Below are positions 1,195 through 58,580 of a stretch of DNA of 64,000 bases, piece by piece. Location: the IMG/VR virus record IMGVR_UViG_3300044632_002025; one strand, written 5' to 3'. The position numbers and the translations under genes are program-made. How positions within the stretch are numbered: position 1 is the first letter of the stretch; the number at the start of each line of letters is the position of its first letter. The notes under the pieces were generated by a model that did no database searches, was not told the DNA's origin, and worked only from the letters and a program-made list of their open reading frames with translations. Source of the stretch: a virus.

Positions 1195-1686
1195 ATGAGA
1201 AAGAAAGACGTTAGAATGAGCAAAGAGGTCGTGGAACAAACCAAAAAATTGTTCCAAATCTATAAACTGGGAGGGGTGTCTGTTAGGACTTTAGCAGAAC
1301 GGTTCGATATTCCCTGGACTACTTTAAGAGATAGATTTCGTTCCCAATATGGAAAACAGTATACCAAACATAGAGCAGATGAAGGGACTGTCCATGCTGT
1401 GATTAAAGAACATTTAAGTCGTCTAGAAGGTATTCACTTACGCAGGGCGGCTGAATGGTATCGGAAGAATCAAGCAGAACTCCTAATGCAAGCTCTTGAA
1501 GACCAAATGAATCCAGGGCAACGACCTAAAGTATATACCGAACGTCGTATGGATTCTGATACCAAAGCTATGTGTCGTTTGAACCATGATATAGGGTCTT
1601 CTCCTTATTTATCCGATGGTAGGTATGAACCTAAAATCGATGGTGAAGATTCAGACGAACCTTTACCATCAGACTTTTGGGATTAA
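1195..1686 (+). CDS. putative helix-turn-helix DNA-binding protein
   Basis: GGVSVRTLAERFDIPWTTLRDRF looks like an HTH. It lies next to the palindromic iterons. Confidence 0.5.
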   Translation: MRKKDVRMSKEVVEQTKKLFQIYKLGGVSVRTLAERFDIPWTTLRDRFRSQYGKQYTKHRADEGTVHAVIKEHLSRLEGIHLRRAAEWYRKNQAELLMQALEDQMNPGQRPKVYTERRMDSDTKAMCRLNHDIGSSPYLSDGRYEPKIDGEDSDEPLPSDFWD

Positions 1687-1688
1687 TT

Positions 1689-1718
1689 GGGTCTAACGGG
1701 GTCTAACGGGGTCTGACC
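1689..1718. repeat. three tandem decamers GGGTCTAACG/GGGTCTGACC
   Basis: Direct reading of the sequence. Confidence 0.8.
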
Positions 1719-1747
1719 CATCCTCAACCCTACCTGACCCCTCCTGA

Positions 1748-1768
1748 CCCCTTTGGAAGGGGTTTTTT
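1748..1768 (+). terminator. rho-independent terminator CCCCTT-tgg-AAGGGG-TTTTTT
   Basis: Hairpin plus T6. A near-identical element lies at 59809-59829. Confidence 0.7.
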
Positions 1769-1804
1769 ATTGTCAACCCCCAGTCTGCCCCGGTTAAGCT
1801 GGGG

Positions 1805-1996
1805 GGTGGTTCAAATGTACTAGACAAAGATGAACTGGGGGGGGTAGGGGGGGGTTCTCTTTTTTCAGGGCGACCCTTCCTATTCCATCCCCCCCAAGTT
1901 TGACAGGGCTTAACTGGGTTTGACCCCTAGACCCCCTTTTACCTTGGGTATGAGTATTTATACCTATCCCTAAAGACATAGTACGGGGTTTGACCC
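1805..1996 (-). repeat. repeat module M copy 1 (TATAAATA block, G/C-run box, TAGTACATTTG block)
   Basis: Its reverse complement is colinear with 3128-3255 and 60837-60990. 1861-1996 is a ~135-bp direct repeat of 2200-2336. Confidence 0.75.
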
Positions 1997-2173
1997 GACC
2001 AGACCCCGTTTAACCACTTCCACCCAACCTGACCCAGTTAGCTAAGGGTGGAAGTGGGGGGGTTCTTGGGTTTTTTTATGGAGACCTCCTTGATTCCACT
2101 TGGTCGGATTGGGTTGAATCTGGTTTGACCCTGCCAGCCCCAGCCTAAGCCAACCAGCCCCAGCCATTCCTTA

Positions 2174-2336
2174 CTAAGGGGGTAGGGGGGTTAGGTTGGT
2201 TTTTCAGGGCGACCCCCCTTATTTCATCCCTCCCAAGTTTAACAGGGCTTAACTGGGTTTGACCCCCCAGACCCCCTTTTACCTTGGGTATGAGTATTTA
2301 TACCTATTTCTAAAGACATAGTACGGGGTTTGACCC
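2174..2336 (-). repeat. repeat module M copy 2
   Basis: Direct repeat of copy 1 at 340-bp spacing. It includes ACCTTGGGTATGAGTATTTATACCTAT. Confidence 0.75.
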
Positions 2337-2497
2337 TGCCAGACCAGTCTTAGCCAACCAGTCCCAACTATTCTATACTAGGGGGGTAGGGGGGGTTAGG
2401 TTGGTTTTTATAACGGACAGTTATAACTCCGCACCTGGTCTGACCTGTTTTAGCCCGGTTCAACCCCAGTTTAATACATTTGTACTATATAAATCCA

Positions 2498-2536
2498 CAA
2501 CTGGGGGGGTTCGAGGCATTTTTCACCCCCCTAGTT
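2498..2536. repeat. G-run/C-run hairpin CAACTGGGGGGG...CCCCCCTAGTT
   Basis: Inverted arms with a 16-nt T-rich loop. Confidence 0.7.
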
Positions 2537-2560
2537 TCCCCTTTAGACTCAGATGAAACC

Positions 2561-2630
2561 CAGTCTGGCCATGTTCAACCCAGTCTGGTCATGTTCAACC
2601 CCGTCTGGCCATGCTTAACCCAGTCTGGTA
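2561..2630. repeat. 3.5 tandem copies of the 20-mer CAGTCTGGCCATGTTCAACC
   Basis: Exact 20-bp period (2561, 2581, 2601, 2621). Confidence 0.85.
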
Positions 2631-2650
2631 CAAGTGTACTAAGGGTCTAA

Positions 2651-2701
2651 CAAGTAGGGGGGTTACTTGAATCTGAAATTCTCTCCGAACCCCCCCACTT
2701 G
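2651..2701. repeat. G-run/C-run hairpin CAAGTAGGGGGGTT...AACCCCCCCACTTG
   Basis: 14-nt inverted arms with a 23-nt loop. Confidence 0.7.
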
Positions 2702-2840
2702 CCCCCTTAGACCCAGGTGAAACCTAGACAGGACAAGGTTTCCAGGTTGCCCCCTGACTTCCCCTATTAGGACTTAATTGCCGTTGTTGATGATGGTTAG
2801 ACCAAGTTTAAAATCTGTCAAAAGTTCAGTGTTTTAAGGG

Positions 2841-2869
2841 TTGCAAAATATTCACGCCCAAGTTATAAT
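2841..2869 (+). promoter_or_regulatory. strong sigma70-type promoter TTGCAA-N17-TATAAT
   Basis: Near-consensus hexamers. The spacer contains ACGCCCAA. No protein gene follows for ~600 nt. Confidence 0.6.
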
Positions 2870-2883
2870 AGGGAAAGAGTCTT

Positions 2884-3127
2884 GAGGTCAAATTATACTC
2901 TAGGACAAACATTTAACCTAACCATTTTTAGGAAATGTATAAATGGATACATTTTGGGTCAAACTGGGGCTTAAGGGACACCAACATCGTCAAACCATTC
3001 CAGCATGGGGTTTGCGGGGGATTTGCCAAGTCGAAACTGGAGTAGATAGGGCTAACTGGGAAATTGATGCCCTGGACATAAAAAACCAAAGCAACCCCCC
3101 CACTTGATGGGTTAAAACAGGGCTATA
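2884..3127 (+). repeat. conserved blocks i-iv shared with 60587-60836
   Basis: GAGGTCAAATTA.ACTCTAG.ACAAACATTT.ACCT; AAATGTATAA..G.TACATTTTGGGT; GGACA.CAACATCG.CAAACCATTCCAGCA.GGG..TTGCGGGG. Confidence 0.8.
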
Positions 3128-3345
3128 TCTTTAGAGGTAGGTATAAATACTCATACCTTGTACATAACGGTTAGTCGAGGGCAGTGCGGGGAGAATTAGT
3201 CCTCCCCTGTAGAAAAAACTGACCTACCCCCCCCCACCCCCCCTAGGAGATGAGAGACTGGTTAGTCGAAGGCAGTGCGGGGGGAATTAGGTCTCCCCCG
3301 TAGAAAAAAACTTATCCACCCCCCTACCTACCCCGTTGACGGGTT
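3128..3345 (+). repeat. repeat module M copy 3 plus two ~92-bp tandem subunits (GGCAGTGCGGGG...AGAAAAAAC...CCCCCC)
   Basis: CTTTAGAGGTAGGTATAAATACTCATACC, then subunits at 3170-3258 and 3262-3345. Confidence 0.75.
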
Positions 3346-3380
3346 AACCTAGAAACTCTACGGGGTCGGGACTTCAGTAA

Positions 3381-3422
3381 CAACTAGGGGGGTTATTTTA
3401 GGATTCAGACCCCCCCTAGTTG
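3381..3422. repeat. perfect hairpin CAACTAGGGGGG-N18-CCCCCCTAGTTG
   Basis: 12-nt perfect inverted arms. Confidence 0.8.
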
Positions 3423-3504
3423 GGAATTTAATACCTAAAACAAATAGGGTTTTATCAACTCTAAACAGGTTAGACATTGATAAAACCTATTCGCTATGTT
3501 AGCC

Positions 3505-4242
3505 TTACTCTAAACCAATTTGTTTGATTTTGCCAATTTCACAAGCCTTTTTGACAGCTTCAAATGGTTCTAAACCATCTTCAACAATAAATCTGGAAGC
3601 TAATTCTTCTGCAAACTTTAGCTCTCTTAAGGCTTCAGTAGGAATATGGTCACGGATAGCTCCTGATTCCTTAAGTTGATAGTGGTCTTTGGCTTGTTTT
3701 GATTTAACGCCTAAGACTAGCCCATTGAGATAGTCTGTAGAATTAGGATAGATGAACTTTTTGTAATTAGAACTTAGTTCTGGGTTATTTTCCAAATAAT
3801 ATTTGAAAGAGTCAGTTAGGGTGCGACGGGCGATTTTGCTTTCAACTCTGGTTTGGAGACGGTCATTGCGTTCTTCTTCAGTACGTTGAATATTGAAAGC
3901 ATGGTCTAAGCGACGTTCTAAAGATTCTACCAAACAGGAAAAAGCTACGGCTTGGCATTTTTTGTTGCCCAGTTGAGCATAAGCACTTACTATAGTACAA
4001 AAGGTCTCCATACCCATAAGTCTAGCTAATGCGTTAGTACCCTCTACATGAACCTTCTCAACAGAAAGATTGTCCAGTGCCAGTAAGGGTTTGGCGTATT
4101 TTTTACCGGTTGAGTCACCTATAAGAATATCTAATGCTTTGCAACCATTTTGGGACATAGCATAGCTACCATCAGGTAATTGATACCCTTCAAGTTGGAT
4201 GCCGCCTAATTTAATTGTGGCTTTTTTGGCTTTGTTGTTCAT
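3505..4242 (-). CDS. hypothetical DNA-binding/antirepressor-like protein
   Basis: ORF 3505-4287. Met16 (MNNKAKK, nt 4242) is preferred because the upstream codons overlap a promoter-like TATAAT. The family is not recognised. Confidence 0.45.
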   Translation of the reverse strand: MNNKAKKATIKLGGIQLEGYQLPDGSYAMSQNGCKALDILIGDSTGKKYAKPLLALDNLSVEKVHVEGTNALARLMGMETFCTIVSAYAQLGNKKCQAVAFSCLVESLERRLDHAFNIQRTEEERNDRLQTRVESKIARRTLTDSFKYYLENNPELSSNYKKFIYPNSTDYLNGLVLGVKSKQAKDHYQLKESGAIRDHIPTEALRELKFAEELASRFIVEDGLEPFEAVKKACEIGKIKQIGLE

Positions 4243-4401: not shown

Positions 4402-5019
4402 ATGACACCGGAAGAAATTAAACTATTATTAGAGGAATCGCAACAGGCGTTTCTATCCCAACTACAAGGGGAATTGGGAACGCTAAAGGCAGGCATCTTA
4501 AGCGAGGTAGACCGAAAAAACAGTGGATTGGCGAGTAGTCTACAAAAATCCTGGGATAAAAAAACCACTAAAGCACCCGAACCTGAGCCAGAATTAGAAG
4601 TGGAAGTGGAGACACCCAAACAGAAACTAAGTCTTCAAGCCCTACAGAAACAGATTGAAGATTTGAAAAAACAGTCAGAGGAAAAAGACAGAAAAATAGT
4701 TGCCAAAGAATTAGAATCCACATTAAATGCAACAATCTCCAAATTTAAACCGCTAGACTTAGGAATTGCGACCAAAGCCTTTAAGCTACAGTACGAGGAT
4801 AACTTAGTTTACGAGGATGGTGTAGCCTTTGTCAAAAATGGGGATAATGTGGAAAGTCTGGATGAGGCGTTAGGAAAATTCCTAGAAACTGATTTCGGTA
4901 AAAGTCTATTACCCCCGACATCCAAAGCTCGTGGTGCTGGATTAAAACCCCAAAACAGTAGCCCTGCCCCCACAGAGGGGAAACGGGACATTCTGGAAGA
5001 TTTGTTTATTGAGGATTAA
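4402..5019 (+). CDS. putative scaffolding protein
   Basis: Acidic, coiled-coil-like 205-aa protein immediately upstream of the capsid gene. Confidence 0.4.
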   Translation: MTPEEIKLLLEESQQAFLSQLQGELGTLKAGILSEVDRKNSGLASSLQKSWDKKTTKAPEPEPELEVEVETPKQKLSLQALQKQIEDLKKQSEEKDRKIVAKELESTLNATISKFKPLDLGIATKAFKLQYEDNLVYEDGVAFVKNGDNVESLDEALGKFLETDFGKSLLPPTSKARGAGLKPQNSSPAPTEGKRDILEDLFIED

Positions 5020-5533: not shown

Positions 5534-6580
5534 ATGGCAAAGCTTAATTTAGCAGTAGTCAACACGATTTTTTCGGAATTGTTGACCAAAGAGGTAAACC
5601 GTGAAGCAACCTTCTTGTCGTTGCTGTCGAAGTTACCCGAACGTAAGTCCAATATCCAGTGGTCTGTAGGAGTTGGTGGAACGCAAGCAACGGGAGTAGC
5701 AATTACTGGTTCAGCACCTGCGGCCAGCCAAGACGTAACTATTCCGGCACAGTTACCCATCAATAGTTCTTCGTTACAATCTACTTTCACCTTGAACTTG
5801 AAAGAGATTGAGGAAGCTAAAGAAATGGTTTCCAATGCAGAATTACGTCAGTTGCTGTCTGCACAAATGCGTAATGCAGTAGACGAACAAGCTACTACTT
5901 TAAACCGTAAATTATACAATGGAACCGGTGCGATTTCTGATGGAGGAATCATCGGTCTATCCATTGCGGCTGGTACTGGAGATTATGCGGGTATTCCTTC
6001 AGCGACCTACCCTTTATGGCAAGGACAGGTCGTAGATTGCTGGGATGCCGCCGCCGCCGCCGCCGACAAACGCCAAGCCTTAAAAACCGACTTTATGCTG
6101 GAATTAGACCGTAAAATCCGCTACCGTCCTGGTCGGTATGACCTAATCCTAACTACCCCTAAAGTCGTTGAACAATACAAGAAAGTCTTTGAAGCCAATC
6201 GTAGCTTCCAAATCATGACTTTTGACGGCAACCGAGTTCCTTTGGTGGACTTAGGATTCAACGTGGCTGGTTACATGGGAACCCCAATCATCGATGATGT
6301 GTATTGTAACCGTACCCGTACTGCGGCTGAATCGGCCATTACCACTGCTCTCGGTACTGATGTTGACGAAGGTGTAATGTATTTCTTACGTCGTGAAGAC
6401 TTAACGTTCTATTCCGCACCCGTACAGAACTCGTTTTCGGCTAACGGTGTTTATACCTTAATGCGTCAACTGGCTCAAACTAGCTTGTATGTGGACAACT
6501 TCGTAGTTGGTTGTATTGCCCAGTTGCAATTAGCCACTCGGAAAAACGTTGGAGTTATCCGTAATATTAAAGTCGCCTAA
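5534..6580 (+). CDS. putative major capsid protein
   Basis: 348 aa, follows the scaffold-like gene and is followed by a strong terminator. No motif proof. Confidence 0.6.
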   Translation: MAKLNLAVVNTIFSELLTKEVNREATFLSLLSKLPERKSNIQWSVGVGGTQATGVAITGSAPAASQDVTIPAQLPINSSSLQSTFTLNLKEIEEAKEMVSNAELRQLLSAQMRNAVDEQATTLNRKLYNGTGAISDGGIIGLSIAAGTGDYAGIPSATYPLWQGQVVDCWDAAAAAADKRQALKTDFMLELDRKIRYRPGRYDLILTTPKVVEQYKKVFEANRSFQIMTFDGNRVPLVDLGFNVAGYMGTPIIDDVYCNRTRTAAESAITTALGTDVDEGVMYFLRREDLTFYSAPVQNSFSANGVYTLMRQLAQTSLYVDNFVVGCIAQLQLATRKNVGVIRNIKVA

Positions 6581-8563: not shown

Positions 8564-9520
8564 CTAAAGATGAGAATCTTGGTCAGAATCAAAAAAGTCC
8601 TTTGCTTCTAAATCGGAGTTAAATGGCTTAACCCATTGGGTAATTTTTTGGCGGATTTCAGTCCCATTAAGAATCCTGGTATCTTTTTCCATAGCAGAGT
8701 CACCAGACTCACCTGTAAAAAATTTACGGGCAGGAACCCAACCAATAAACCCGCCACACATCACAGATGCGTCGATGGCTACGGCAGTATGCTCTAAAGC
8801 TGACCAATGCTTTGAGCTAACTAGACGTAAAAATAGTTTAACATCCTTTTCCACATCCATATTCCCTTCGTGGTTTAGGTAAGACACTCTCGCACAACGA
8901 GAGGCTGACAGAGCAATGAGTAAAAGAGTATTACCTTTGTACAGTTCTCTTTCCTCATGGGTTACATAGGGCAGATGCAAACCACCATCTGATAGGATAT
9001 AAGCAGAACATTTGTGGTAAGCCTCAAGCATTAAGCGGGCTACTTTTCTAATCTCTGGCTGGGCTTTTTCAGAAGTACGAAGTTCAAAAAAGTTGAACCA
9101 TTGAGTGCCGGTCAGCACCACATCCACCATTTGAAAAGGCTCAGTAAGTCGGTTCACAATTTCTTTATGAACCCCAAGCAGGTTCAATAAATTAGCCCAA
9201 AACCGTTGGGAGTGCATGGAGCAGAACCATACAAGGTCAGCTAATTTAGCCTTTAGACCCGTCAGGGGCTTACCAGCTTGCATTCCTGACTTATTCGTAC
9301 CCCATTGGTCAGGGTGATAGGGATTCTCTACTAATTTTCGGTCTTTTTTCTTAATCGGAACAGCCCGATTCGACTCGGTATTAGAGGACAAAATACGGTG
9401 TTTATTGAGTTGAGCTAAGACAAATCGGGGAATACGAATTTGAAAAGTGGTAATAGTGTCGCCTGTGATGGAATTGACACTTTGTTCGATGACCTTAGCG
9501 TGGTATTGGGTAGGTTTCAA
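8564..9520 (-). CDS. thyX: flavin-dependent thymidylate synthase (ThyX-like)
   Basis: KHRILSSNTESNR fits the ThyX signature (R/K)HRxxSxxxxSxR. Confidence 0.65.
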   Translation of the reverse strand: MKPTQYHAKVIEQSVNSITGDTITTFQIRIPRFVLAQLNKHRILSSNTESNRAVPIKKKDRKLVENPYHPDQWGTNKSGMQAGKPLTGLKAKLADLVWFCSMHSQRFWANLLNLLGVHKEIVNRLTEPFQMVDVVLTGTQWFNFFELRTSEKAQPEIRKVARLMLEAYHKCSAYILSDGGLHLPYVTHEERELYKGNTLLLIALSASRCARVSYLNHEGNMDVEKDVKLFLRLVSSKHWSALEHTAVAIDASVMCGGFIGWVPARKFFTGESGDSAMEKDTRILNGTEIRQKITQWVKPFNSDLEAKDFFDSDQDSHL

Positions 9521-10044
9521 GAATTTGCTCCTAATTTCTTAATTTTTCTGACTTCTGACTTATAAGTTCGCAGGGTAAGACCCAGAGTTTTAGCTATTAC
9601 CTCTTGGGTAAGACCCATTAGACGTTTGCGGACAATTTGCTTTTGGAGGGGGGTGAGTTTTGACCAGAAGAGGTTCAGGGTCATTTGGTATTCAGTGGAA
9701 TCGACTAGGGATGCCATATTGTCTAGGGGAAAATCTCGAAGTTGGCATTCCATGACATAGGTTTTGTGCCGAATAAGGCGGAACCTTTTGCGAATATCCA
9801 ACCAGCAATAGCTGGTGAGCGTTCCTTTGTTGGGGTTCCAAGTCTTAAGTTTTTCTAGAACCAGACAAAGACCTTCCTGAAAGTAATCCTCTCCTTTGAC
9901 TGACGTATCACGCATAGCACGACGGATAGCGGGGATTTGGGATTTAACCAAATTTAGTTTAGACGTTTCACAGGCTTGTTGTTCGATGGTTAGATGACAG
10001 TATTCCATGACAGAGGTTTTGAATTTTAGACGGCTTAACCCCAC
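9517..10044 (-). CDS. phage sigma-70 family (ECF-like) factor
   Basis: Region-2-like YFQEGLCLVLEKLKTWNPNKGTLTSYCWLDIRKRF and region-4 HTH LTQEVIAKTLGLTLRTYKSEVRKIKKL. GTG start. Confidence 0.6.
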   Translation of the reverse strand: MGLSRLKFKTSVMEYCHLTIEQQACETSKLNLVKSQIPAIRRAMRDTSVKGEDYFQEGLCLVLEKLKTWNPNKGTLTSYCWLDIRKRFRLIRHKTYVMECQLRDFPLDNMASLVDSTEYQMTLNLFWSKLTPLQKQIVRKRLMGLTQEVIAKTLGLTLRTYKSEVRKIKKLGANS

Positions 10045-33246: not shown

Positions 33247-33870
33247 TTGTTTATGAACACTGATAACTGGTTTATGCTCGTTCCTTCTAGAATAGCCTCC
33301 TCCAAATTAGGGCTTCACCCCCATACCCTTAGAAAATATTTTGATGACGGTTTGATTAAGGGGATTAAAAACCCCGCAGGTCAACGATATTACGATGTTG
33401 AATCCTATTTAGCCGACCCTCTTGACAAACCCTCAGTTATCTGTTATGCTAGGGTTAGTTCAAGAAAACAGTCTGCTGATTTGGCTAGACAGGTCGATTT
33501 CTTGAAATCAGTTTACCCCGATTCGGAGATTATTACAGATGTCGGTTCTGGACTTAACTTCAAAAGAAAAGGTATTCAAACCCTATTGGACAGATTACTC
33601 TCAGGAGATTAGTTCACTCTTGCTATCTCCCACCGAGATAGACTCTGCCGATTCGGATTTGAATTGTTCCAATACCTTTTCCTCAAGAACGGTGGAACAA
33701 TCGTGGTTCTCAACAATACTCAAACAAGTCCCGAACAAGAACTTACCCCCTACTTACTATCAATCCTCCATATTTTCAGTTGCAGAGTCTACGGACTTAG
33801 AAAAAACAACAAAAATATCGAGGAAGATAAGACTTTACCCCGACAAAACTCAACAAAATCTACTGAATGA
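33247..33870 (+). pseudogene. tnpA: IS607-type serine recombinase TnpA interrupted by one in-frame TAG (33610-33612)
   Basis: MerR-like HTH, catalytic YARVSSRKQ..DLARQ, then ...LLSGD*FTLAISHRDRLCRFGFE...SPEQEL...FSCRVYGLRK, all in a single frame. Confidence 0.8.
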
Positions 33871-34969
33871 GCTAATCTCTCAATATCGGTTTGTTTACAA
33901 TAAAACTGTAGATTTGCTGATAAACGGTAAAATTGGGGCTAATTGTGATTTAAAGACTAAGAAAGAAAGAAAAGGTTTGTCAAGCTATGACATCCGTGAC
34001 ACATTCTTTCAATTTTGGTTGGAGAAACACACTTGGTTAACCAATTGCATAAACATAAATACAGTAAAGGAGGCTATCACCGAAGCTATCAATGCCCAAC
34101 AAGTAGGGTTTGCCCAATTAAAAGCGGGGTTAGTTGAAAGGTTTGAGTTAAAATTCAAATCTAGAAAAAAGCCCCGACAAACTATCAACCTAAAAAAGGA
34201 AATACTCTCAGCTAAGGGAGTGTTAGCCCCCCGAAACCTAAAACTAGAAACCCCCCTAAAATCAGACACAAGGGGTAGTTTTGATGGTCTAACCCTCACA
34301 ACTACTGGGGGATTGTTCTACCTAATTTATACTGAAGATATTGCTAATAATCCAGAAGTCGAAAACCAAGACCTAAAGATTGTAGCATTAGACCCTGGTG
34401 TTAGAACTTTCCAAACTATTTTCTCGTCTAATGGGGTTTTCGGTAAATTTGGTCAAGAAGCCATTAAAAGATTGGCTAAACTATGCCATAAAGCAGACAA
34501 AATCCAATCTAAAATAGCTAAAACCAAAAACCAAAGTCGGATTAATTATCTAAGAATGTGGCAACAACGAACCACATTAAAGATAAGAAATCTGAGGAAA
34601 GAACTCCACCACAAAATTAGTAGATTTCTAGTAGATAACTTTGATGTAATCCTGCTACCCTGCTTTAACACCGGTGAAATGGTTAAAAAGAAGGACAGAA
34701 AAATCAATAAATCTACTACCCGTTCAATGTTAAATTTTGGACATTATGAGTTTAAGGAATTATTAAAGTTCAAAGCCAATAAATTTGGTAAAAAACTAAT
34801 AATAGTTTCTGAGGCTTATACCTCCAAAACCGTATCATGGACAGGGGAAATAATAGCTAATCTAGGTGGGAGGAAAGTAATCAAATCTCAGAGTAACGAA
34901 AGTTTAGACAGAGATTTAAATGGAGCCAGAGGAATCCTAATAAAATTCTTAACTGAGCTACCCCAATAG
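33539..34969 (+). CDS. tnpB: TnpB (OrfB) RuvC-like transposon-associated protein; true start uncertain (GTG 33692 possible)
   Basis: RKIRLYPDKTQQNLLNELISQYRFVYNK, ALDPGVRTF (RuvC-I Asp), AYTSKT, DRDLNGARGI (RuvC-III Asp). Confidence 0.8.
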   Translation: MSVLDLTSKEKVFKPYWTDYSQEISSLLLSPTEIDSADSDLNCSNTFSSRTVEQSWFSTILKQVPNKNLPPTYYQSSIFSVAESTDLEKTTKISRKIRLYPDKTQQNLLNELISQYRFVYNKTVDLLINGKIGANCDLKTKKERKGLSSYDIRDTFFQFWLEKHTWLTNCININTVKEAITEAINAQQVGFAQLKAGLVERFELKFKSRKKPRQTINLKKEILSAKGVLAPRNLKLETPLKSDTRGSFDGLTLTTTGGLFYLIYTEDIANNPEVENQDLKIVALDPGVRTFQTIFSSNGVFGKFGQEAIKRLAKLCHKADKIQSKIAKTKNQSRINYLRMWQQRTTLKIRNLRKELHHKISRFLVDNFDVILLPCFNTGEMVKKKDRKINKSTTRSMLNFGHYEFKELLKFKANKFGKKLIIVSEAYTSKTVSWTGEIIANLGGRKVIKSQSNESLDRDLNGARGILIKFLTELPQ

Positions 34970-37237: not shown

Positions 37238-39013
37238 TTAATAGCCAGAATTATAATTTCCGTAGAGACTATCATCTTGGGGGACACTGGGTATTAGGGT
37301 ATTTGCACCCATACTATCGATGATATTCTCAATATTCCGATGCTCCAAAGTAGCCAAAACGTAACGTAAAGCATCGCAAAAATGGTCTCTTTGCCCTTCA
37401 GCCACTTTCTCGGTAACATTCCCTTCTTTAGACTCTCGGTGATATGCAGTCATGTCCTCAAAAACCCTTTTACAGGATTTGGCAATAAAAAGTTTATCTT
37501 GGTGTAATAAAGTGTTAACCACCCCATTACCTTCTGATACCCTATTATAGCCCTCCATTAACTTGGGAACACCCGCTTTTCTCATGGTTAAAATTCTTCC
37601 CGGTTGTGACGGGTCAGCATATCCACGGTTGACACCATGCGTTCTGGCTAACTCAATGGCTTTCTCATTGTGGACTCGTTGTTCAATGGCCGCTTTAGGG
37701 TTGGGATTTTCCCAACAATCAATCACAAAATAAGCGGCTCCCCGTCTTCCCACCACTACTAGGGCAGGATTCACATCTCCCCAGTCCACTCCGATATATA
37801 CTTGGTCAAATTTTGTCGGTAAATCGTCATCATCCAGTAAGTGTCTCTTATCTAAATCTGAGAATATCTGACCATCAAAAGATTCCCAAGATGCTAAAAA
37901 TTCTTGTCTAAAGATTTTTTCGGGTAATGACTCTTTGGTTCTTTGGATTTCATCAAGGGGAATAAAGGGATTATCATAAACTGTTTTTAAAAAACTAGCC
38001 CAATTAGGAACTTCACCACCTTGTAGGTAAAGACTATGGAAAAATGTACCTGCCCCCTTGGGCGTACCAATAATTAGAGATGTACTATTTTTAGTATCAA
38101 CTAAAGCAGGGCGAATCACTTCCGTCCATACAATAGGTTTTATATCTTGCATCTCATCTAATCCAGCAAAATATATCTTCAACCCCCGCATATTGTCGCC
38201 GTTATCTTCATTGGCTCCTCTGAGGATGATGTCTGGTTTATTTCCTTTAAAAACGATTCTGCATTCAGACTTAAAAATTCTTTTAACTGCTGGGTGTCCA
38301 TCTAGAATATTTACAAGTGGTTCCCAGTGGATTTGTTTAGCCTGTTTTAAGCTAGGCATAACGAGCAAAACGACGGGGGGTGAAGCTTTATCATAGTTGC
38401 CGTTGTAATTAATAGCCCTTTCGATTAAAGTAGTTAATAGTAGCCTGGAATTATGGGTAGGGATGTTACTTTTACTACATAGGAAAATCCCTCCTTCTAC
38501 TTGAATACACTTAGTTCGATGTCTTCCAACAGGGATTACATCGGCTATAAAAAAGCTTTCCCACGGATGCAAAATTTTACGAGGAACAGATAAATTAAGT
38601 TTTTTACTTCCCTTTTGAATGTTTTGATGGTAATAGAATATTTCCTCAGTAGTCCATGTGTTAGACTCTAACTTACGGTTTAGCTCCAAAACCCACTCAT
38701 GGTTTTTCCCTGCTCTGATAACCTGTCCATTTTCAAAGACAATATCGTAGCAATCATCTTCAAATACCTCGGTAGCCGCTAAAACTTTTACAGGTAAACC
38801 CTGTTCATTATATACAGTGTCCCCAGTGAAAATTTTCTTAATCGGTTTATAACCATTTTTGGTCAAAATAGGGGTGTTTTCTTCTAAATTTTTCCCAAAT
38901 CTCCTCGATGAAACCAAAACCTTGAATCTGGCAGGGTCTCCGAATACTTCTTGTTGTCCCGGGTGTAAATATAATTTTAATTTTCCAGGTTTTGCCATTA
39001 TCTCTACGCTCAA
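37238..39013 (-). CDS. terL: terminase large subunit, intein-containing
   Basis: Walker A SSRRFGK|S is reconstituted after removing aa 42-188. Also Walker B IYFAGLDE and nuclease motifs IGVDWGD and DHFCDALRY. Confidence 0.85.
   Translation of the reverse strand: MSVEIMAKPGKLKLYLHPGQQEVFGDPARFKVLVSSRRFGKNLEENTPILTKNGYKPIKKIFTGDTVYNEQGLPVKVLAATEVFEDDCYDIVFENGQVIRAGKNHEWVLELNRKLESNTWTTEEIFYYHQNIQKGSKKLNLSVPRKILHPWESFFIADVIPVGRHRTKCIQVEGGIFLCSKSNIPTHNSRLLLTTLIERAINYNGNYDKASPPVVLLVMPSLKQAKQIHWEPLVNILDGHPAVKRIFKSECRIVFKGNKPDIILRGANEDNGDNMRGLKIYFAGLDEMQDIKPIVWTEVIRPALVDTKNSTSLIIGTPKGAGTFFHSLYLQGGEVPNWASFLKTVYDNPFIPLDEIQRTKESLPEKIFRQEFLASWESFDGQIFSDLDKRHLLDDDDLPTKFDQVYIGVDWGDVNPALVVVGRRGAAYFVIDCWENPNPKAAIEQRVHNEKAIELARTHGVNRGYADPSQPGRILTMRKAGVPKLMEGYNRVSEGNGVVNTLLHQDKLFIAKSCKRVFEDMTAYHRESKEGNVTEKVAEGQRDHFCDALRYVLATLEHRNIENIIDSMGANTLIPSVPQDDSLYGNYNSGY
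38450..38890 (-). other. 147-aa class-3 mini-intein inserted in the TerL P-loop
   Basis: NLEENTPILT...GKNHEW (block B His and Trp)...TKCIQVEGG (block F Cys)...IPTHN|S (block G Thr-His-Asn, +1 Ser). Confidence 0.75.
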
Positions 39014-53247: not shown

Positions 53248-53256
53248 TTGGGCGCA
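53248..53256 (-). promoter_or_regulatory. start-associated motif core (TGCGCCCAA on minus strand)
   Basis: 32 nt upstream of ATG 53216. Confidence 0.35.
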
Positions 53257-53300
53257 TAGGATTTTATCAATCTTAAACAGGGTGGGTATTGAGAAAAATC

Positions 53301-53311
53301 TATACGCCCAA
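53301..53311 (+). promoter_or_regulatory. start-associated motif core TATACGCCCAA
   Basis: 36 nt upstream of ATG 53347. Confidence 0.45.
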
Positions 53312-53346: not shown

Positions 53347-56300
53347 ATGGCCAGACGCAAAGGTAGAAAATTATACTCCCCTAATTCCCCCCAAGACCCC
53401 AGGAAATCCCGTGGCGGTAATATTAAAGATGGTATGGGGGTTGTTAAAGGTACTAATGTTAAAGGGGAAGCTTTTTCCTTTGACCCGTCTAAGCACAAAC
53501 GAGACCCCTTGACTGGTAAATGGGCTACTAAACCTGATGTGGTTAAGCCCCAAAAAGATAAGAAAAAAGCCACTAAACCCACTTCTTCCGAGGCTAAAAA
53601 AACTAAACCATCCTCCCCCTTCGCCAAATTTAGACAAAGGGTTCGTGATGCTTTAAAACAACAATTAATTAATTACGCAAAAAATAAATCAGATAAGTCT
53701 AAATCCACACCGTCTAAACCTGATTCTGTGTCAACTGTGCCAGTTAATGCTAAACCTATTGAGAAAAAGAATTTTACCCTGGATGACTATACTCAAAGAG
53801 GACAAGAAATTAGCTCTAAATATGGGTTGAGTGATAATAAGTTCTTAGGCAGACTGGCGAAGTTAATAGACAAATTACTCAGTTTCCAAGAAAAACCGTC
53901 ATTAACGCCTTCTGACATGGAGGAACTAAAAAAAATTAATGACGATATATTGGAGACACAAAAGAAGGCCTATGAAGACTTTGAGAAAAAAGTTGAACAA
54001 CTTTTAGACGACTATAGAGAAAATGCTTCAGATTTAGACATGGATAAAGTAATTTTAAAGACTAGATTTGTAAGAAATGGTTTTCCAAGAGATTTAAATG
54101 AGGACGTTGATATGGTGAGGGAAGCCTATAAAGATTTTCACTATCTCACTAACGGCAATATTATAGGCTTTCCCAATTTGTTGGATGTTAACAATGAAGG
54201 TAATAGCTATGCCGTTTACCCTAATAAACCCGCACAAAGTTCAATAGTCAGCATTGGGACATCTGGACAGGGGGAAGTTCCTCTGAGGCAGGCGACCTTC
54301 CATGAATTGGCGCACCTAGTTGAGCTTCATGTTCCTGGTCTCAAAGAAGCGTCTCTAGAGTTCCTGAAAAAACATAGTTACACTGGAACTCTAGAGAATT
54401 TTGATTACCTGGGTGTACCTATCTCAGGATATAAGGGGGACTTTATAGATGAATATGTGGGTAGATTTTACGTCCAAAATTCAGCCACAGAGGTTTTATC
54501 TACGGGATTTGAACGTTTAAGTAATCCAGATAGCGCATTTAAACTTTTTGTAAATTCTAATCATCACTTTAATTATATTCTTGGTGCGCTTGACCGTGTT
54601 AACTCTACTAGAAATTCTGAATCTTACCGGCTACCAAATAAATCTGTTAGGAAAATACCAAATAAATCTGCTGAGGAAATACCAAATAAATCTGCTGAGG
54701 AAATACCAAATAAATCTGCTGAGGCAAAGAATTTGACCCTAGATAACTACACTCAAAGAGGACAAGAAATTAGCTCTAAATATGGGTTGAACGATACTAA
54801 AACACTAGGAAAACTCCAAGAACTAAGTGGTATACTAAGAGAATTTAACACTAAAATAATGGGTATGTATGACGACCCTACTTTAACCGACTCCGACAGA
54901 GAAGAAGTTATACGTCAATTTGACGAGGTTTTCAAAAAACACAAAAATCTTGAAAAGAAATTTAGGGCAAAATTCGAGAAAAATGTTCAAAATCTTCTAG
55001 AATCCTACAAAGAAGCTAGTAAAGATTTAGACTTAGAGAAACTTTTGGAAAATTCTAAATTCACATTGTATGGGCAAGAACTAGATAAATCAGATAGGAA
55101 CGTGGATTTAGTGAAAGAAAGTGTTAAAGATTTCCACTCTCTTACTAAGGGGTTTCTGGGAGAATTGGTTCCTATGATTGACGTAGACAGAAATGGTTCT
55201 AGTTACGTCCGCTACCATCCAGATAAGCCAGAAAAATTGACACATATTAGAATCGGGGCTATTGGACTCGGTGATGAAGTATTTAAACTTCAGACCTTCC
55301 ATCAAATGGCTCACATTCTGGAATCCCACATACCTGGACTCCTAAAAGCATCTATGGAGTTCCTGAAAAAACATAGTTATTCGGGGCAAGAGGAAGACAT
55401 CGAACACAGGGGTATGACCTACAGAGGGTATAAAGGTGATTTTATAAATAATTATGTGGGTAGAACATACAACAAAGGGGTATCAGCCACAGAGGTTATA
55501 TCTACAGGTTTTGAAAGACTTCGTAACCCTACAGACGCATTTACTCTCTACACAGAATCAAACCATCACTTTAATTTTATTCTTGGGGTTCTAGATAGTA
55601 TTAACCAGACTGAGCCGCCTAAAACAAAATTAATGAGTAGCTTAACTCAAAAAAACTTAGACCCTAAACCAGAACCCGCAGAGCCAAAACCAACTACTCC
55701 TAAACAGGTTTCCAAAGAGTACACTGATACTATTAATTCTGCAAAATCTAAAATCTCCCAGTATAAACTGGATAGACTTGTCAAAGTTTTTGAAACTCAA
55801 GATGCCCAAATCAATGCGGAGCTAAAATCTTTAGACCCTAAAAACCCTGAAGACGTTGAAAAAGCCCAAAAACTTTTTGCTAGAAAACGTAAACTGAAGC
55901 AGTCTCTTGATACTTACCTTGAGAAACAGATGAACTTATTGTATCAAGAACTGCTTGATAATAATAATTCTGTAAACTCTGACCTCCTAGTGGGACAAAC
56001 TAATTTTCAAATAGGTGAATACACTAAAAATCTTAAACCAGCCAATACTGAAGACCCTATCTATAAAACTCACACTCCTGTAATTAGTAAGGCTTTGGCT
56101 GAATTTCATAAACTTACAGGGGGGATTCTGAACAACTTAGTCCCCCGTATAGGACTCAGCGAAAAAAAAAGAAGTTGGGCTGGATTCGATGCAAAAGAAC
56201 CCCAAAAAAATAATTATCTTTCTATATCTGTAACCCGTTCCAATGATGTTAAACCCTCAGTTTTTCATGAAGCGGCACACCTGTTGGAAGGGTCTGACCC

Positions 56301-56610
56301 TAAATTTGCCAACTTAGCTAAGGAATTTTTAGCTAAAAATAGAACTTCAGATGAACTTAAGCAAATAAAGGGTTATCCTGCTGGCGAAGTGGCTTACCCT
56401 GGAAACTGGGTTCACCCCTATGTGGGTAAAAATTATGAAAATGCCCCCTCCACAGAAGTAATTTCAATGGGTATAGAACGATTTGCTAGTCCTAGAGATA
56501 TGGCGGAATTTTATTTTAAAGATAAGGAACATTTTGCTCTAACTTTGGGGATTATAGAATCCCTTAAAGTCCCTGAACATCTAAAACCAAAACCTGCTAC
56601 AATATATTAG
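53347..56610 (+). CDS. large basic-N-terminus protein with three ~320-aa internal repeats, each with an HExxH-type motif
   Basis: HELAH (54301-54315), HQMAH (55300-55314), HEAAH (56266-56280), each followed by ..GYKGDF..YVGR.Y....ATEV(L/I)S.G.ER. The first track Met overlaps the upstream motif. Confidence 0.6.
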   Translation: MARRKGRKLYSPNSPQDPRKSRGGNIKDGMGVVKGTNVKGEAFSFDPSKHKRDPLTGKWATKPDVVKPQKDKKKATKPTSSEAKKTKPSSPFAKFRQRVRDALKQQLINYAKNKSDKSKSTPSKPDSVSTVPVNAKPIEKKNFTLDDYTQRGQEISSKYGLSDNKFLGRLAKLIDKLLSFQEKPSLTPSDMEELKKINDDILETQKKAYEDFEKKVEQLLDDYRENASDLDMDKVILKTRFVRNGFPRDLNEDVDMVREAYKDFHYLTNGNIIGFPNLLDVNNEGNSYAVYPNKPAQSSIVSIGTSGQGEVPLRQATFHELAHLVELHVPGLKEASLEFLKKHSYTGTLENFDYLGVPISGYKGDFIDEYVGRFYVQNSATEVLSTGFERLSNPDSAFKLFVNSNHHFNYILGALDRVNSTRNSESYRLPNKSVRKIPNKSAEEIPNKSAEEIPNKSAEAKNLTLDNYTQRGQEISSKYGLNDTKTLGKLQELSGILREFNTKIMGMYDDPTLTDSDREEVIRQFDEVFKKHKNLEKKFRAKFEKNVQNLLESYKEASKDLDLEKLLENSKFTLYGQELDKSDRNVDLVKESVKDFHSLTKGFLGELVPMIDVDRNGSSYVRYHPDKPEKLTHIRIGAIGLGDEVFKLQTFHQMAHILESHIPGLLKASMEFLKKHSYSGQEEDIEHRGMTYRGYKGDFINNYVGRTYNKGVSATEVISTGFERLRNPTDAFTLYTESNHHFNFILGVLDSINQTEPPKTKLMSSLTQKNLDPKPEPAEPKPTTPKQVSKEYTDTINSAKSKISQYKLDRLVKVFETQDAQINAELKSLDPKNPEDVEKAQKLFARKRKLKQSLDTYLEKQMNLLYQELLDNNNSVNSDLLVGQTNFQIGEYTKNLKPANTEDPIYKTHTPVISKALAEFHKLTGGILNNLVPRIGLSEKKRSWAGFDAKEPQKNNYLSISVTRSNDVKPSVFHEAAHLLEGSDPKFANLAKEFLAKNRTSDELKQIKGYPAGEVAYPGNWVHPYVGKNYENAPSTEVISMGIERFASPRDMAEFYFKDKEHFALTLGIIESLKVPEHLKPKPATIY
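54634..54729 (+). repeat. four tandem 24-bp repeats (IPNKSAEE linker)
   Basis: CCAAATAAATCTGCTGAGGAAATA starts at 54634, 54658, 54682 and 54706. Confidence 0.9.
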
Positions 56611-56651
56611 TAGTCTCGAACGACCAAATTTTAATTCGGAGGATTAATTTC

Positions 56652-56978
56652 TTGAAAGCTACCCTATCCCATTTTTTAGGTACAGTGAGTATTTCTACCA
56701 ACGTGGACACACACCCTGACAAACCAGTTGTTGCTGAATATAAGGTGGATTCCACTGTCCCAGAGGCTATCCCTGTCCTAAAATCCATCTTTGTTCGTGA
56801 ACTAGACCGGGCTACTGGTCTTTATGGTCATATCGGCGTGTTTTACGACAAAGAGAATGATACCTTTGACTCCACTAATATGGATTTATACGTCGCTTTA
56901 CAAGGTCTTGACGGCTTTTCCGTAGATGAACTCACTGAAATTAAAGCCAGCAAAATGCCTGAAGGAGTTTTGACTTAG
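56652..56978 (+). CDS. hypothetical protein
   Basis: Intact ORF with a TTG start. Confidence 0.3.
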   Translation: MKATLSHFLGTVSISTNVDTHPDKPVVAEYKVDSTVPEAIPVLKSIFVRELDRATGLYGHIGVFYDKENDTFDSTNMDLYVALQGLDGFSVDELTEIKASKMPEGVLT

Positions 56979-58550: not shown

Positions 58551-58580
58551 AACTATTTGGGACTAACAAAAAAAAAAAAA

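Follow-up and report, generated by a model that had tools for sequence, protein, structure and literature searches.

A gene-free, repeat-built region of a Mic1-like Microcystis phage as a possible promoter/terminator cassette island

What might a phage keep in 1.8 kb of DNA that encodes no protein? Region 1687-3504 raises this question in a 64-kb stretch of DNA (hereafter the window) from a Mic1-like Microcystis phage, a siphovirus whose closest isolate is Microcystis phage Mic1 (capsid protein 82% identical). The gene-free stretch is real. A preliminary description had seen no credible open reading frame in it, and this was borne out: the longest one encodes 61 aa (1794-1979, minus strand), falls within repeats and is not retained in the paralog. 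No conserved coding frame was found in homologous phages, the frames being broken in both paralogs and relatives. A 54-aa frame at 2943-3107 has +1/-1 indels inside it in two close relatives (L001 and L002), and two indels, of 7 nt and 1 nt, separate the two paralogous cores described below, so that their conserved nucleotides fall in different frames. A protein-coding gene was thus rejected, as no open frame is conserved in relatives or paralogs. The same description took the rest of the genome to be tightly packed, which is not so, since gene-free stretches also occur at 59711-61364 (1.65 kb) and 632-1194 (0.56 kb).

The region is flanked by two genes.

1195-1686, plus strand: gene for a 163-aa HTH_psq-type DNA-binding protein, homolog of Mic1 gp48 (Pfam HTH_psq, E=2e-4)
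3505-4242, minus strand: accessory gene, phrog_2657, annotated 'transcriptional regulator' (PHROG, E=6e-14)

The HTH_psq profile matches eight of the 11 family members of the first protein, which shares 55% aa identity with gp48, a late (L1) gene product in Mic1 (RNA-seq Table S1). The earlier hint at this gene proved useful, as the link between HTH gene and island holds across two phage clades: the gene adjoins a large gene-free island in every relative but the most distant (L049, 38% identity), on its 3' side in this phage and on its 5' side in Mic1-like phages. An AF2 model of the protein (pLDDT 79) matched only generic HTH domains in PDB and BFVD, with no small-terminase match in either and no terminase profile match. 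The accessory gene is present in L001 and L002 and missing from a third close relative, L004, where the junction fuses CAGACCCC (~3405-3413) to CTGACCCCTGTTAG (~4338) within GACCCC-containing words. Elsewhere in the window, the TerL gene lies at 37238-39013, 34 kb from the region, and a DUF5906 primase/helicase-like gene at 49-51 kb.

Every repeat listed in the preliminary description was found in the region. The arrays and interrupted palindromes are given below, the palindromes as read from the sequence.

1689-1718, plus strand: tandem decamers GGGTCTAACG / GGGTCTGACC (TRF 1689-1714, period 10, 2.6 copies, 100%)
2557-2628, plus strand: 20-mer tandem array AACCCAGTCTGGCCATGTTC (TRF, 3.6 copies, 88%, in line with the earlier claim)
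2499-2536, no strand: interrupted palindrome H3, AACTG7 - T-rich loop - C6TAGTT
2651-2701, no strand: interrupted palindrome H4, CAAGTAG6TT - loop - AAC7ACTTG
3381-3422, no strand: interrupted palindrome H5, CAACTAG6 - loop - C7TAGTTG

The direct repeat spaced at 340 bp is present but measures ~155 bp instead of 135 bp, as the pairs 1861-1940/2200-2279 (85%) and 1924-2016/2264-2356 (89%). The tandem subunits given as 92 bp (3170-3345) were found as a 91-bp tandem (3169-3218/3260-3309, 90% identical). The proposed inverted architecture is seen in 35-nt arms at 1947-1981 and 2287-2321 against 3123-3157 (91%), in 29-nt arms at 2052-2080 against 3077-3105, and in others besides. Recurring words are enriched far above chance: exact GGGTTTGACCC has four copies, all on the plus strand of the left half and none elsewhere in the 64 kb, and GGTYTRACS has nine on the plus strand (1690-2437). 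The G-run/C-run hairpins were likewise recovered, and 21 of the window's 81 G6+/C6+ runs fall in the region, compared with a whole-window expectation of 7.3. Palindromes of the H3 type also occur at 2651-2701, 3381-3422 and 59857-59912. The H4 stem is perfect in L001 and L002 (folding z -4.4 on the plus and -5.4 on the minus strand), and H5 forms the left junction of the indel that takes out gene 3505-4242 in L004.

Hairpins followed by T-runs form two arms. The left arm (1746-2523) has six GC-run hairpin and T-run modules, all on the plus strand, and the right arm (3086-3400) has three, all on the minus strand; all nine face inward, towards a centre with promoter and core.

1746-1772, plus strand: canonical intrinsic terminator of the HTH gene, by its sequence (8-bp stem, 3-nt loop, then TTTTTTATTG)
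1775-1866, plus strand: arm module U0, C-run / G8-TA-G8 hairpin then T6 (hairpin at T-run 1860, dG -22)
1867-2077, plus strand: arm module U1a, hairpin and T7 (first 340-bp repeat copy; families D1/D3, inverted repeat I1)
2078-2204, plus strand: arm module U1b, hairpin and T5 (dG -41.7 ahead of T-run 2200)
2205-2409, plus strand: arm module U2a, hairpin and T5 (second 340-bp repeat copy; families D1/D3/D8)
2410-2523, plus strand: arm module U3, hairpin and T5 (dG -24.6 ahead of T-run 2519)
3086-3400, minus strand: arm modules V3 (3086-3212), V2 (3219-3309) and V1 (3311-3400), each a hairpin and T6-7
3443-3491, minus strand: putative terminator hairpin of gene 3505-4242, read as a 15-bp stem AATAGGGTTTTATCAA / TTGATAAAACCTATT

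Nine sites combine a run of at least five T with an adjacent hairpin (dG -19 to -44); several have long loops or a T-run a few bases off the stem, and a strict scan (3-8-nt loop) passed only 1746-1764. The folding advantage of the modules tracks the same strands as their T-runs. U0 folds more stably on the plus than on the minus strand, as do U1a (z -6.6 vs -3.9; dG -44.4 ahead of T-run 2071) and U1b (z -3.5 vs -1.4), while V2 and V3 are more stable on the minus strand. The V modules include the 91-bp tandem pair, and their T-runs at 3085, 3218 and 3310 have dG values of -23, -38.6 and -18.8. U1a holds two GGGTTTGACCC words and the 35-nt motif arm 1947-1981; U2a holds the motif arm 2287-2321, with dG -33.8 ahead of T-run 2405, and is mostly deleted in L002. 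A near-identical copy of the 1746-1772 terminator is found at 59807-59835, and a hairpin similar to 3443-3491 at 53256-53307. Real gene ends share the arm-module style, for example behind the capsid gene (6612) and the cement gene (~382-415). The plus-strand sites come after the plus-strand HTH gene and the minus-strand sites after the minus-strand gene 3505-4242, but the rule that terminators follow a co-oriented gene fails in the second island and at divergent junctions in Mic1.

The centre carries a candidate promoter and the most conserved sequences.

2841-2869, plus strand: predicted sigma70-type promoter TTGCAA-17-TATAAT, rightward (10/12 consensus matches)
2875-3161, plus strand: conserved core A (71%-identical paralog at 60578-60870)
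3123-3157, plus strand: family motif CTATRYCTTTAGRRRTARGTATAAATACTCATACC, inverted relative to 1947-1981 and 2287-2321 (repeats I1/I2, 91%)

The promoter is the only plus-strand site at its score within the region, its -35/-10 hexamers stand within the 16-18 bp spacing of sigma70 promoters, and both are invariant in L001, L002 and L004. No plus-strand hairpin with a run of at least five T was found between it and position 3504. The counterpart of the promoter at the equivalent position in Mic1-like islands, TTGACA-17-TATGAT, precedes the same AAACATTTAACCTA block by ~45 nt. Core A contains an inverted repeat (2885-2893/2911-2919), AAACATTTAACC at 2907-2918, a palindrome at 2933-2954 and the block GGACAYCAACATCGYCAAACCATTCCAGCAYGGG, and is nearly invariant among close relatives. 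It shows no excess folding (z -0.4 on the plus and -0.8 on the minus strand) and almost no covariation (term only -0.96 / -1.96); its conservation is one of sequence blocks, not of RNA structure. The extended family motif has only four copies in the 64 kb, three in the region (two direct, one inverted) and one at 60850. Mic1 has seven copies of RGTATAAATACTTAGACC, six direct and one inverted, all in its 3-kb island, and the register of the motif hairpin differs there, which indicates that the sequence rather than the pairing is conserved. Among 185,579 bacterial and archaeal genomes (one per species), the motif gave only three unrelated chance matches and the core block none. The cassette family is thus, by its sequence, phage-specific, and a host-derived MITE or intergenic repeat was rejected, as no true copies occur in those genomes.

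The same module family builds the longer of the other two gene-free stretches.

59711-61364, plus strand: second island (three plus modules, core B, two minus modules)

This island reads plus, plus, plus, centre, minus, minus. Predicted promoters lie at 60073, 60339, 61060 and 61315, the motif at 60850 and core B at 60578-60870, with no promoter of its own in core B. In addition, the island has promoter-to-terminator non-coding units at ~60108-60332 and ~60374-60547 and a tRNA-shaped RNA at 61096-61292. Cores A and B share long identical blocks at 71% identity overall.

The preliminary description proposed checking whether related phages conserve the region as a unit, and it is kept at 89-97% in L001, L002 and L004, with changes in copy number. 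Copies of the 20-mer range from ~1.6 (L004) through 3.6 (this phage) and ~5.6 (L002) to at least 13 (L001). The 91-bp unit is single in L004 and double here. The decamer array of L002 is expanded to at least five 20-nt units, and L002 has another array of ~200 bp. Arm units are gained and lost at repeat borders among these relatives, and in relatives a mobile TnpB element lies beside or within such regions.

Mic1 has four islands of the arm-centre-arm design, each with a sigma70-type centre promoter. Its 3-kb island shares the 18-nt motif with region 1687-3504 and adjoins the homologous HTH gene. The word GGGGGG(G)(A)TAACTTTATTTTTTTT has 13 copies in four groups, and in every group the plus copies lie left of the minus copies. 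Since no C-run precedes this word to pair with it, it does not form a canonical terminator in Mic1. Of the four island centres, three share 83-97% identity and the fourth has diverged; one centre is flipped relative to the rest. The centre promoters m1, m2 and m4 face co-oriented genes (gp18/19, gp48-cement and gp93 onward, respectively), and the fourth, m3, reads into early genes in the antisense direction. The motif and the G-run/T-run word persist across clades with protein identities of only 55-82%.

Our preferred reading, with a probability of roughly 45%, is that region 1687-3504 is a phage-family-specific, self-insulated promoter/terminator cassette island at a transcription-unit boundary. 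This reading draws on the uniform polarity of the modules on each side together with a folding advantage on the same strands, on the use of the same hairpin style at genuine gene ends, and on the conservation of the promoter in relatives with its equivalent upstream of AAACATTTAACCTA in Mic1-like islands. It further draws on the recurrence of the same grammar in the second island and in the four groups of Mic1, on the three Mic1 centre promoters that face co-oriented genes, on the phage-specificity of the family, and on plasticity that falls exactly at repeats (20-mers, 91-bp units, the second 340-bp copy and gene 3505-4242). By consensus, the arms resemble intrinsic terminators, with a GC-rich hairpin followed by a U-tract and an orientation set against the co-oriented flanking genes; both termination at the arms and promoter activity at 2841-2869 are predicted on that basis.

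In such a cassette, the left arm would stop the cement-HTH operon and the right arm would stop gene 3505-4242, and together the arms would keep outside transcription from entering the centre. The centre promoter would then start a long leader heading towards the scaffold and capsid genes; in L004, which has no gene 3505-4242, the leader would run to the head genes uninterrupted. The arms may also serve as recombination substrates, because they consist of long direct and inverted repeats, and this would explain the copy-number changes, unit loss and gene indel among close relatives. Several observations sit poorly with the cassette reading. Many arm hairpins are long-looped or have the T-run off the stem, and the Mic1 word is not a canonical terminator. 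In Mic1, inward-facing modules also flank islands at divergent gene junctions, where there is no incoming transcription to stop; the m3 promoter is antisense to early genes, and core B is promoterless. Moreover, nine modules far exceed the need for insulation, and sequence-level conservation of the core blocks and the 18-nt motif is left unexplained.

A replication origin, possibly transcription-activated, is a plausible but less probable reading. Here, DNA would unwind at the AT-rich core downstream of promoter 2841-2869, and a phage initiator would bind the divergent GTATAAATACTCATACC motif copies and oriented word arrays, with the inward terminators shielding the site. The paralogous core at 60.6 kb would then serve as a second or auxiliary origin, in the manner of the oriL/oriR pair of SPP1 (PMC6316719). 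The AT-rich island at ~2860-2950 (AT 0.68-0.75, compared with a genome 99th percentile of 0.73) is flanked by the oriented word arrays and motif copies, as in iteron origins, and the AT-richest 90 bp adjoin the promoter in both paralogs. The core is kept as sequence blocks, and the motif arrays are confined to the islands. The cumulative GC skew of Mic1 forms a clean V with its minimum at 52.5-55.5 kb, covering TnpB and the late-gene side of the 3-kb island, and its maximum near 7 kb, on the opposite side of the genome. Within an arm the skew keeps its sign on either gene strand (-0.068 / -0.123 on the left, +0.122 / +0.052 on the right), and the window repeats the two-arm pattern (+0.094 / +0.020 vs -0.018 / -0.134). 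The region carries the 18-38-nt motif in divergent copies and, because it is the positional counterpart of the Mic1 skew-minimum island, may also contain a replication origin.

The preliminary description named three candidate roles and chose none of them: an origin, a packaging or partition site, and an array of non-coding RNA genes. The origin is plausible from Mic1 and from the AT-rich island by the promoter, but the skew of the window itself does not single out the region. Its minimum is a plateau that includes both islands, with equal minima at 60.0-60.5 kb and 1-500, neither within 1687-3504. The cassette is multi-copy (four in Mic1), yet Mic1 has a single skew minimum, and the skew there also switches where early and late genes diverge. 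No initiator gene lies next to the region, the DUF5906 gene being at 49-51 kb; DnaA boxes are not enriched (17 observed vs 19 expected); and most GGGTTTGACCC copies stem from one segmental duplication.

An array of small non-coding RNA genes, in which the arm units (~90-210 nt, hairpin and U-tract) and the core would be trans-acting sRNAs, is unlikely. The part of this proposal that stands is strand-specific folding, the arm units being unusually stable on the inward-reading strand (z down to -6.6), and the second island offers clear promoter-to-terminator units and a tRNA-shaped RNA. Against it, no promoter-like sequence separates successive arm units, each starting right after the previous T-run, and the core is unstructured and lacks covariation. 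The shifted register of the motif hairpin in Mic1 again speaks for sequence rather than pairing. Rfam gave nothing at gathering score in the region and, at E up to 5, only chance matches to miRNA precursors on the G/C hairpins; ARAGORN found no tRNA or tmRNA.

We consider it quite improbable that the islands are dispersed, self-insulated, promoter-carrying inverted-repeat cassettes that act as transcription-primed replication starts. The centre promoter would then transcribe into the AT-rich unwinding element, and paired G-runs followed by T-runs (G8-TA-G8-T6, G6-T-G7-T7) would stall RNA polymerase and leave an RNA primer, by analogy with the polymerase stalling and RNA primer at conserved sequence block II of mitochondrial DNA. 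Such priming would fit the mitochondrial-type DNA polymerase gamma carried by Mic1.

Very little probability attaches to selfish or decaying repeats without phage function, that is, a MITE-like inverted-repeat cassette spreading by recombination and slippage. Inverted-repeat arms around a centre in dispersed copies, the flipped Mic1 centre, the very unstable copy number and the neighbouring TnpB elements would suit it. However, the paralogous cores retain long identical blocks at 71% identity, the motif and the G-run/T-run word survive between diverged clades, the location of the islands with respect to the HTH gene is unchanged, and there are neither copies in host-type genomes nor an associated transposase.

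Least probable is a pac/cos site at which the HTH protein would act as the small terminase, or else a partition site of centromere-like type, a candidate left unsupported although the HTH gene adjoins the island in both clades, Mic1 gp48 shares the L1 cluster with TerL, no small terminase is identified in these phages and Mic1 encodes ParA and ParB (far from its island). The protein has only HTH_psq and generic HTH matches and TerL is 34 kb off, so that a pac/cos site with adjacent small terminase was rejected; in addition, the island switches sides of the HTH gene. As to partition, no ParA or ParB was found among ~45 of the ORFs in the window, which leaves out ~9 kb of the genome.

The preferred cassette reading and its rivals bear on how Mic1-like siphoviruses, phages of bloom-forming Microcystis under consideration for bloom control and engineering, start replication and switch from early to late transcription. 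An unexplained gene-free stretch has become a defined, testable element family with arms, a promoter core and an 18-nt signature motif. If it is an origin or a head-gene control region, it would be a piece needed for building replicons or re-engineering Mic1-like phages; if it is a recombination cassette, it would account for the movement of accessory genes and TnpB elements into and out of their genomes.

Non-coding elements between gene blocks that combine a promoter with a downstream AT-rich segment include the T7 primary origin, T4 oriF/oriG and the ori of lactococcal phage c2, and the T5 injection-stop region is ~1.5 kb of gene-free DNA crowded with direct repeats, inverted repeats and palindromes. 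We know of no sequence similarity between any of these and the region. In the same phage lineage, the searched passages of the Mic1 paper describe highly repetitive promoter-containing motifs in non-coding DNA and call for transcriptomics; those motifs are different ones, at 59.8-60.2 kb and 66-71.6 kb, and the passages make no mention of the inward G-run/T-run modules or the paralogous centres, of the array of GTATAAATACT motifs, or of a skew minimum at the gap spanning 53.9-56.9 kb in Mic1 (PMC7156551). [quoted passage not shown] Here, too, two paralogous non-coding elements per genome combine direct repeats with an AT-rich island, and one lies among late structural genes with transcription signals on either side. 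In contrast, gp38 is proven to bind the SPP1 repeats, while the skew suggests an origin here only indirectly; the repeat vocabulary is unrelated, and Mic1 carries the design four times.

The PeSL (promoter-early stem-loop) elements of T4-like phages are composite terminator/promoter cassettes (PMC2839356, PMC4122927). The islands differ from them in being far larger (0.5-3 kb), with arms stacked as inverted repeats facing a ~290-nt conserved core, and in being gene-free, whereas PeSL elements flank small early ORFs; the phage is a Microcystis siphovirus rather than a T4-like myovirus. We claim neither a sequence relationship nor membership, likening the islands to PeSL by design. The likeness lies in short conserved non-coding modules that join a stem-loop terminator to a host-type promoter in several dispersed copies (two islands in the window, four in Mic1), and in their place at indel borders between close relatives (here gene 3505-4242 and the arm units), where PeSL elements are thought to mediate modular shuffling (PMC2839356, PMC4122927). 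By this analogy, region 1687-3504 may work much as the PeSL cassettes do.

The non-coding element at 1687-3504 is real and unusual, and its preliminary description is accurate. It was said to contain no credible gene, and no open reading frame above 61 aa was found in it. Tandem decamers (1689-1714), 3.6 copies of a 20-mer (2557-2628) and a tandem pair of 91-bp units in the right half (3169-3309) are all present, and the proposed inverted architecture is evident from inverted repeats of 35 and 29 nt that link the left half with the right half. The direct repeat does recur at the reported spacing (339-340 bp), but it is about 155 bp long rather than 135 bp. The recurring words are enriched far above chance by exact-word, pattern and G/C-run counts. 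The exact word GGGTTTGACCC has four copies, all on the + strand and confined to the region, GGTYTRACS occurs nine times on the + strand between 1690 and 2437, and the region holds 21 of the window's 81 G or C runs with a length of at least six, against about seven (7.3) expected for the whole window. The picture of an otherwise tightly packed genome had to be corrected: the region is not unique, and a second gene-free stretch with the same vocabulary lies at 59711-61364. Across the whole window, G/C runs of this length are about 11 times as frequent as in shuffled sequence (81 vs 7.3), and 51 of them lie beyond the two islands, many within genes.

The window belongs to a tailed phage and leaves out roughly 9 kb of its genome; we recognized the following genes in it:

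4402-5019, scaffold protein
5534-6580, major capsid protein
9517-10044, - strand, ECF-type sigma factor (TIGR02937, E 1.5e-8)
37238-39013, - strand, T4-type large terminase
tail genes and a 2612-aa ORF of tape-measure size
DUF5906 primase/helicase-like protein, and one tRNA-Met in the window

No nucleotide-level counterpart of the window was found among INPHARED phages in either near or distant search modes. The closest isolate by protein is the Microcystis siphovirus Mic1 (MN013189), with 81.6% identity in the capsid and 68.5% in the terminase; the ECF-type sigma factor is a positional homolog of its middle gene gp36. Close metagenomic relatives in IMG/VR comprise the loci L001/L008, L002/L006/L036 and L004/L035. 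A TnpB gene (476 aa, IS605 OrfB / Cas12f-like) lies at 33539-34969 in the window, between the scaffold and capsid genes in L001 (3341-4771) and L004/L035, and as gp49 beside the 3-kb island in Mic1; these differing positions indicate that the element is mobile inside the lineage. The ends of the TnpB element in the window bear no resemblance to the region. Two tandem genes with FGE-sulfatase domains (57217-58340 and 58424-59207) share an upstream promoter and leader (TTGACA-17-TAGGAT or TAAGAT, then AG(A/C)ATCA(A/G)GCAAACAAACACGGAAA). Five copies of a promoter cassette of about 60 nt, consisting of CTCRAACCCCTTGACA-17-TATACT followed by the conserved leader GGGGTTAACCCAACAAAAAC, stand upstream of different genes at 10174(-), 46435, 46585, 52654 and 60339.

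Scanning for T-runs with an adjacent hairpin revealed two arms of opposite polarity. The left half has six such sites on the + strand (T-runs starting at 1763, 1860, 2071, 2200, 2405 and 2519; dG -22 to -44), and the right half has three on the - strand (at 3310, 3218 and 3085); the single site of opposite polarity is weak (+ strand, 2925, dG -13.4). Strand-specific folding concurs, the left units being more stable on the + strand and the right units V2 (3219-3309) and V3 (3086-3212) on the - strand. The arm hairpins, with their C-run, G-run and T-run, are built like the ordinary gene-end terminators of this phage, such as those that follow the capsid gene (at 6612) and the cement gene. The following features lie between the arms or in the core:

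2499-2536 and 2651-2701, interrupted palindromes of the G7-loop-C7 type, between the arms
2557-2628, the 20-mer array, between the arms
2841-2869, sigma70-type promoter, TTGCAA-17-TATAAT
2875-3161, conserved core
2885-2893/2911-2919, inverted repeat in the core
2933-2954, palindrome in the core

Within the region, AT content peaks over the first 90 bp of the core (0.68-0.75, with the genome's 99th percentile at 0.73). The core shares long identical blocks with a 290-nt paralog in the second island, at 71% identity overall. Folding energy showed no excess, and covariation in RNAalifold was almost nil on both strands, so the core is conserved as sequence and not as RNA structure. A protein-coding role was rejected, since the ORFs are short, indels between the paralogs break the frame and the orthologs carry frameshifts. 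Of the three paralog differences in the block KGHQHRQTIPA, two are synonymous in that frame, too few to be meaningful, and the conserved nucleotides upstream of it fall in different frames in the core paralogs. A 38-nt motif ending in GTATAAATACTCATACC has three copies in the region, at 1947-1981(-), 2287-2321(-) and 3123-3157(+), all facing outward; its extended form has one more copy in the second island and no other in 64 kb.

Several promoter assignments were tried and rejected. The word GTATAAATACT, considered as a T4-late-type (TATAAATA) or phage-sigma promoter, is not a general late promoter: its extended copies are confined to the islands, the tail, portal and terminase genes have none in front of them, and Mic1 does not share the motif's upstream half. 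The left-arm TTGACC/TTGACA words have no usable -10 hexamer at 16-18 bp. As promoters for the ECF-type sigma factor, the 20-mers have inconsistent spacing, and a regular expression for their bipartite word matches the region alone.

Among the close relatives, the region is 89-97% identical in L001, L002 and L004, which does not exceed the identity of the neighbouring genes and therefore says little about selection. Its repeats are plastic. Copy number in the 20-mer array varies among the relatives and the window (about 1.6, 3.6, 5.6 or at least 13), L002 has an expanded decamer array and has lost most of the second 340-bp copy, and L004 has one 91-bp unit. The gene at 3505-4242 (- strand; phrog_2657, 'transcriptional regulator') is found in L001 and L002 (91% and 68% aa identity) and is cleanly absent from L004, where the promoter and core therefore lead directly into the scaffold gene. 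The deletion junction, from CAGACCCC (~3405) to CTGACCCCTGTTAG (~4338), falls inside two GACCCC-containing words of the region's vocabulary.

The second island spans 1.65 kb and contains three + strand G-run/T-run modules, two - strand modules and a core paralog (60578-60870) with a single motif copy at 60850. It also has four near-perfect sigma70 promoters, at 60073 and 60339 (both 11/12) and at 61060 and 61315 (both 12/12), and promoter-to-terminator non-coding units at ~60108-60332 and ~60374-60547. Directly 3' of the perfect promoter at 61060-61089 lies a tRNA-shaped RNA of about 197 nt (61096-61292, +), with a 7-bp acceptor stem GCTATTG/CAATAGC, a D-arm-like hairpin and the T-arm GCGGGTTCAATTCCCGT. 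ARAGORN with introns called it tRNA-Phe(GAA) with a 105-nt insert; it was missed by standard ARAGORN and by Rfam, save for a partial tmRNA T-arm match at E 0.009. Upstream of the HTH gene, at 917-1049, three 42-bp tandem repeats have the appearance of a candidate operator array, each carrying one of the ATGGTGAATTTCACCAT-type 17-bp palindromes at 936-1036, and L036 has a matching non-coding stretch upstream of its HTH gene.

The HTH protein (1195-1686, 163 aa) is 55% identical to Mic1 gp48. In every Mic1-like locus recovered, a gene-free repeat region of 1.5-2.4 kb adjoins the HTH gene on its 5' side; in the window's clade it adjoins on the 3' side. Viral and metagenome scans for further relatives through the HTH family returned only these two clades and a distant locus (L049) that has no island. 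As a whole, the 3-kb gap of Mic1 (53,855-56,906) is not alignable to the region; the two have three modules in common. These are the motif RGTATAAATACTYAKACC, whose seven Mic1 copies (six direct, one inverted) all lie within the gap, a G-run/T-run word, and a sigma70 promoter that has AAACATTTAACCTA and an AT-rich stretch about 45 nt downstream. Across the Mic1 genome, 13 copies of GGGGGG(G)(A)TAACTTTATTTTTTTT form four groups:

19.7-22.8 kb, including the gp17 gene, with a gene-free centre at 22.2-22.6 kb
54.1-55.3 kb
72.4-73.3 kb
89.0-89.5 kb

All four groups have + copies to the left of - copies, and the window shows the same order twice. Of the four Mic1 centres, three (about 380 nt long, all containing a promoter) are paralogous at 83-97% identity, and the one in the 3-kb gap is a copy that has diverged. 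Searches of 185,579 bacterial and archaeal genomes for the motif and core block gave three chance matches and no others. A host origin of the repeats was therefore rejected, and the element family is the phage lineage's own. The Mic1 gap also holds, in locus L011 at ~1310-2030, an array of about eight TTTTCTCTCAT words with TGAATACTATTGTATTCA palindromes and several Fur-box-like sequences, for example CGATAATGATAATCATTCTCA, which matches 17 of 19 positions of the E. coli Fur consensus.

Because the readable signals are promoters and terminator-like hairpins, in the same arrangement in six islands of two clades, the region may best be read as a self-insulated promoter/terminator cassette island, to which we give a probability of about 0.45. 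The arms would terminate the flanking operons and shield the centre from outside transcription, the central promoter would start a long leader in the direction of the head genes, and the long direct and inverted repeats would turn the island into a recombination hotspot. Against this reading, many arm hairpins are non-canonical, the Mic1 G/T word has no upstream pairing partner, inward modules also border islands that have no incoming transcription to stop, and the sequence conservation of the core and motif is left unexplained.

A replication origin, one of the functions first proposed, is compatible with a cassette island and is a plausible though less likely reading. The cumulative GC skew of Mic1 forms a clean V, with its minimum at 52.5-55.5 kb and its maximum opposite, near 7 kb, and its sign is independent of gene strand on both arms. 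Bidirectional replication classically leaves such a pattern, which here locates the start at or beside the homologous 3-kb island and would imply that Mic1 replicates bidirectionally from the early/late boundary. We found no report of this pattern in those parts of the Mic1 literature that were searched. The window has the same two-arm skew pattern. In a composite of the window and flanks from relatives, the minimum is a plateau from ~56 kb through the wrap to ~7 kb, with equal minima at 60.0-60.5 kb and 1-500, which fits either island and is decisive for neither. An AT-rich island beside a promoter, with repeat arrays on its flanks, also favours an origin. However, the cassette is multi-copy, yet the skew of Mic1 has only one minimum; the genes adjoining the region include no initiator, DnaA boxes are not enriched, and much of the 'iteron' array derives from one duplication.

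The repeated hairpin units could be read as an array of sRNA genes, which is unlikely given the lack of promoters between units, the unstructured core and the negative searches of the region with Rfam (gathering and relaxed thresholds) and ARAGORN. A packaging or partition site, also proposed initially, is unsupported: the terminase gene is far away, and the AF2 model of the neighbouring HTH protein (11-sequence alignment, pLDDT 79; a first model at pLDDT 51 was too poor and was set aside) matches generic HTH domains only, by which a small terminase was rejected. Purely selfish or decaying repeats are hard to reconcile with a motif, G/T word and core blocks kept between clades with protein identities of only 55-82%.

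As a cassette island, the region would combine known kinds of element, namely composite promoter/terminator cassettes and possibly an origin region. No description of the cassette family was found in the portion of the Mic1 literature searched, and the element is defined well enough for a direct test against the existing strand-specific RNA-seq of Mic1 infection (PMC11237433) and against DNA read depth. Nearest to it in function are the promoter-early stem-loop (PeSL) cassettes of T4-like phages, although we do not claim membership in that class. With oriR and oriL of phage SPP1 it shares an AT-rich island flanked by repeat arrays, and in the region a promoter adjoins the AT island.
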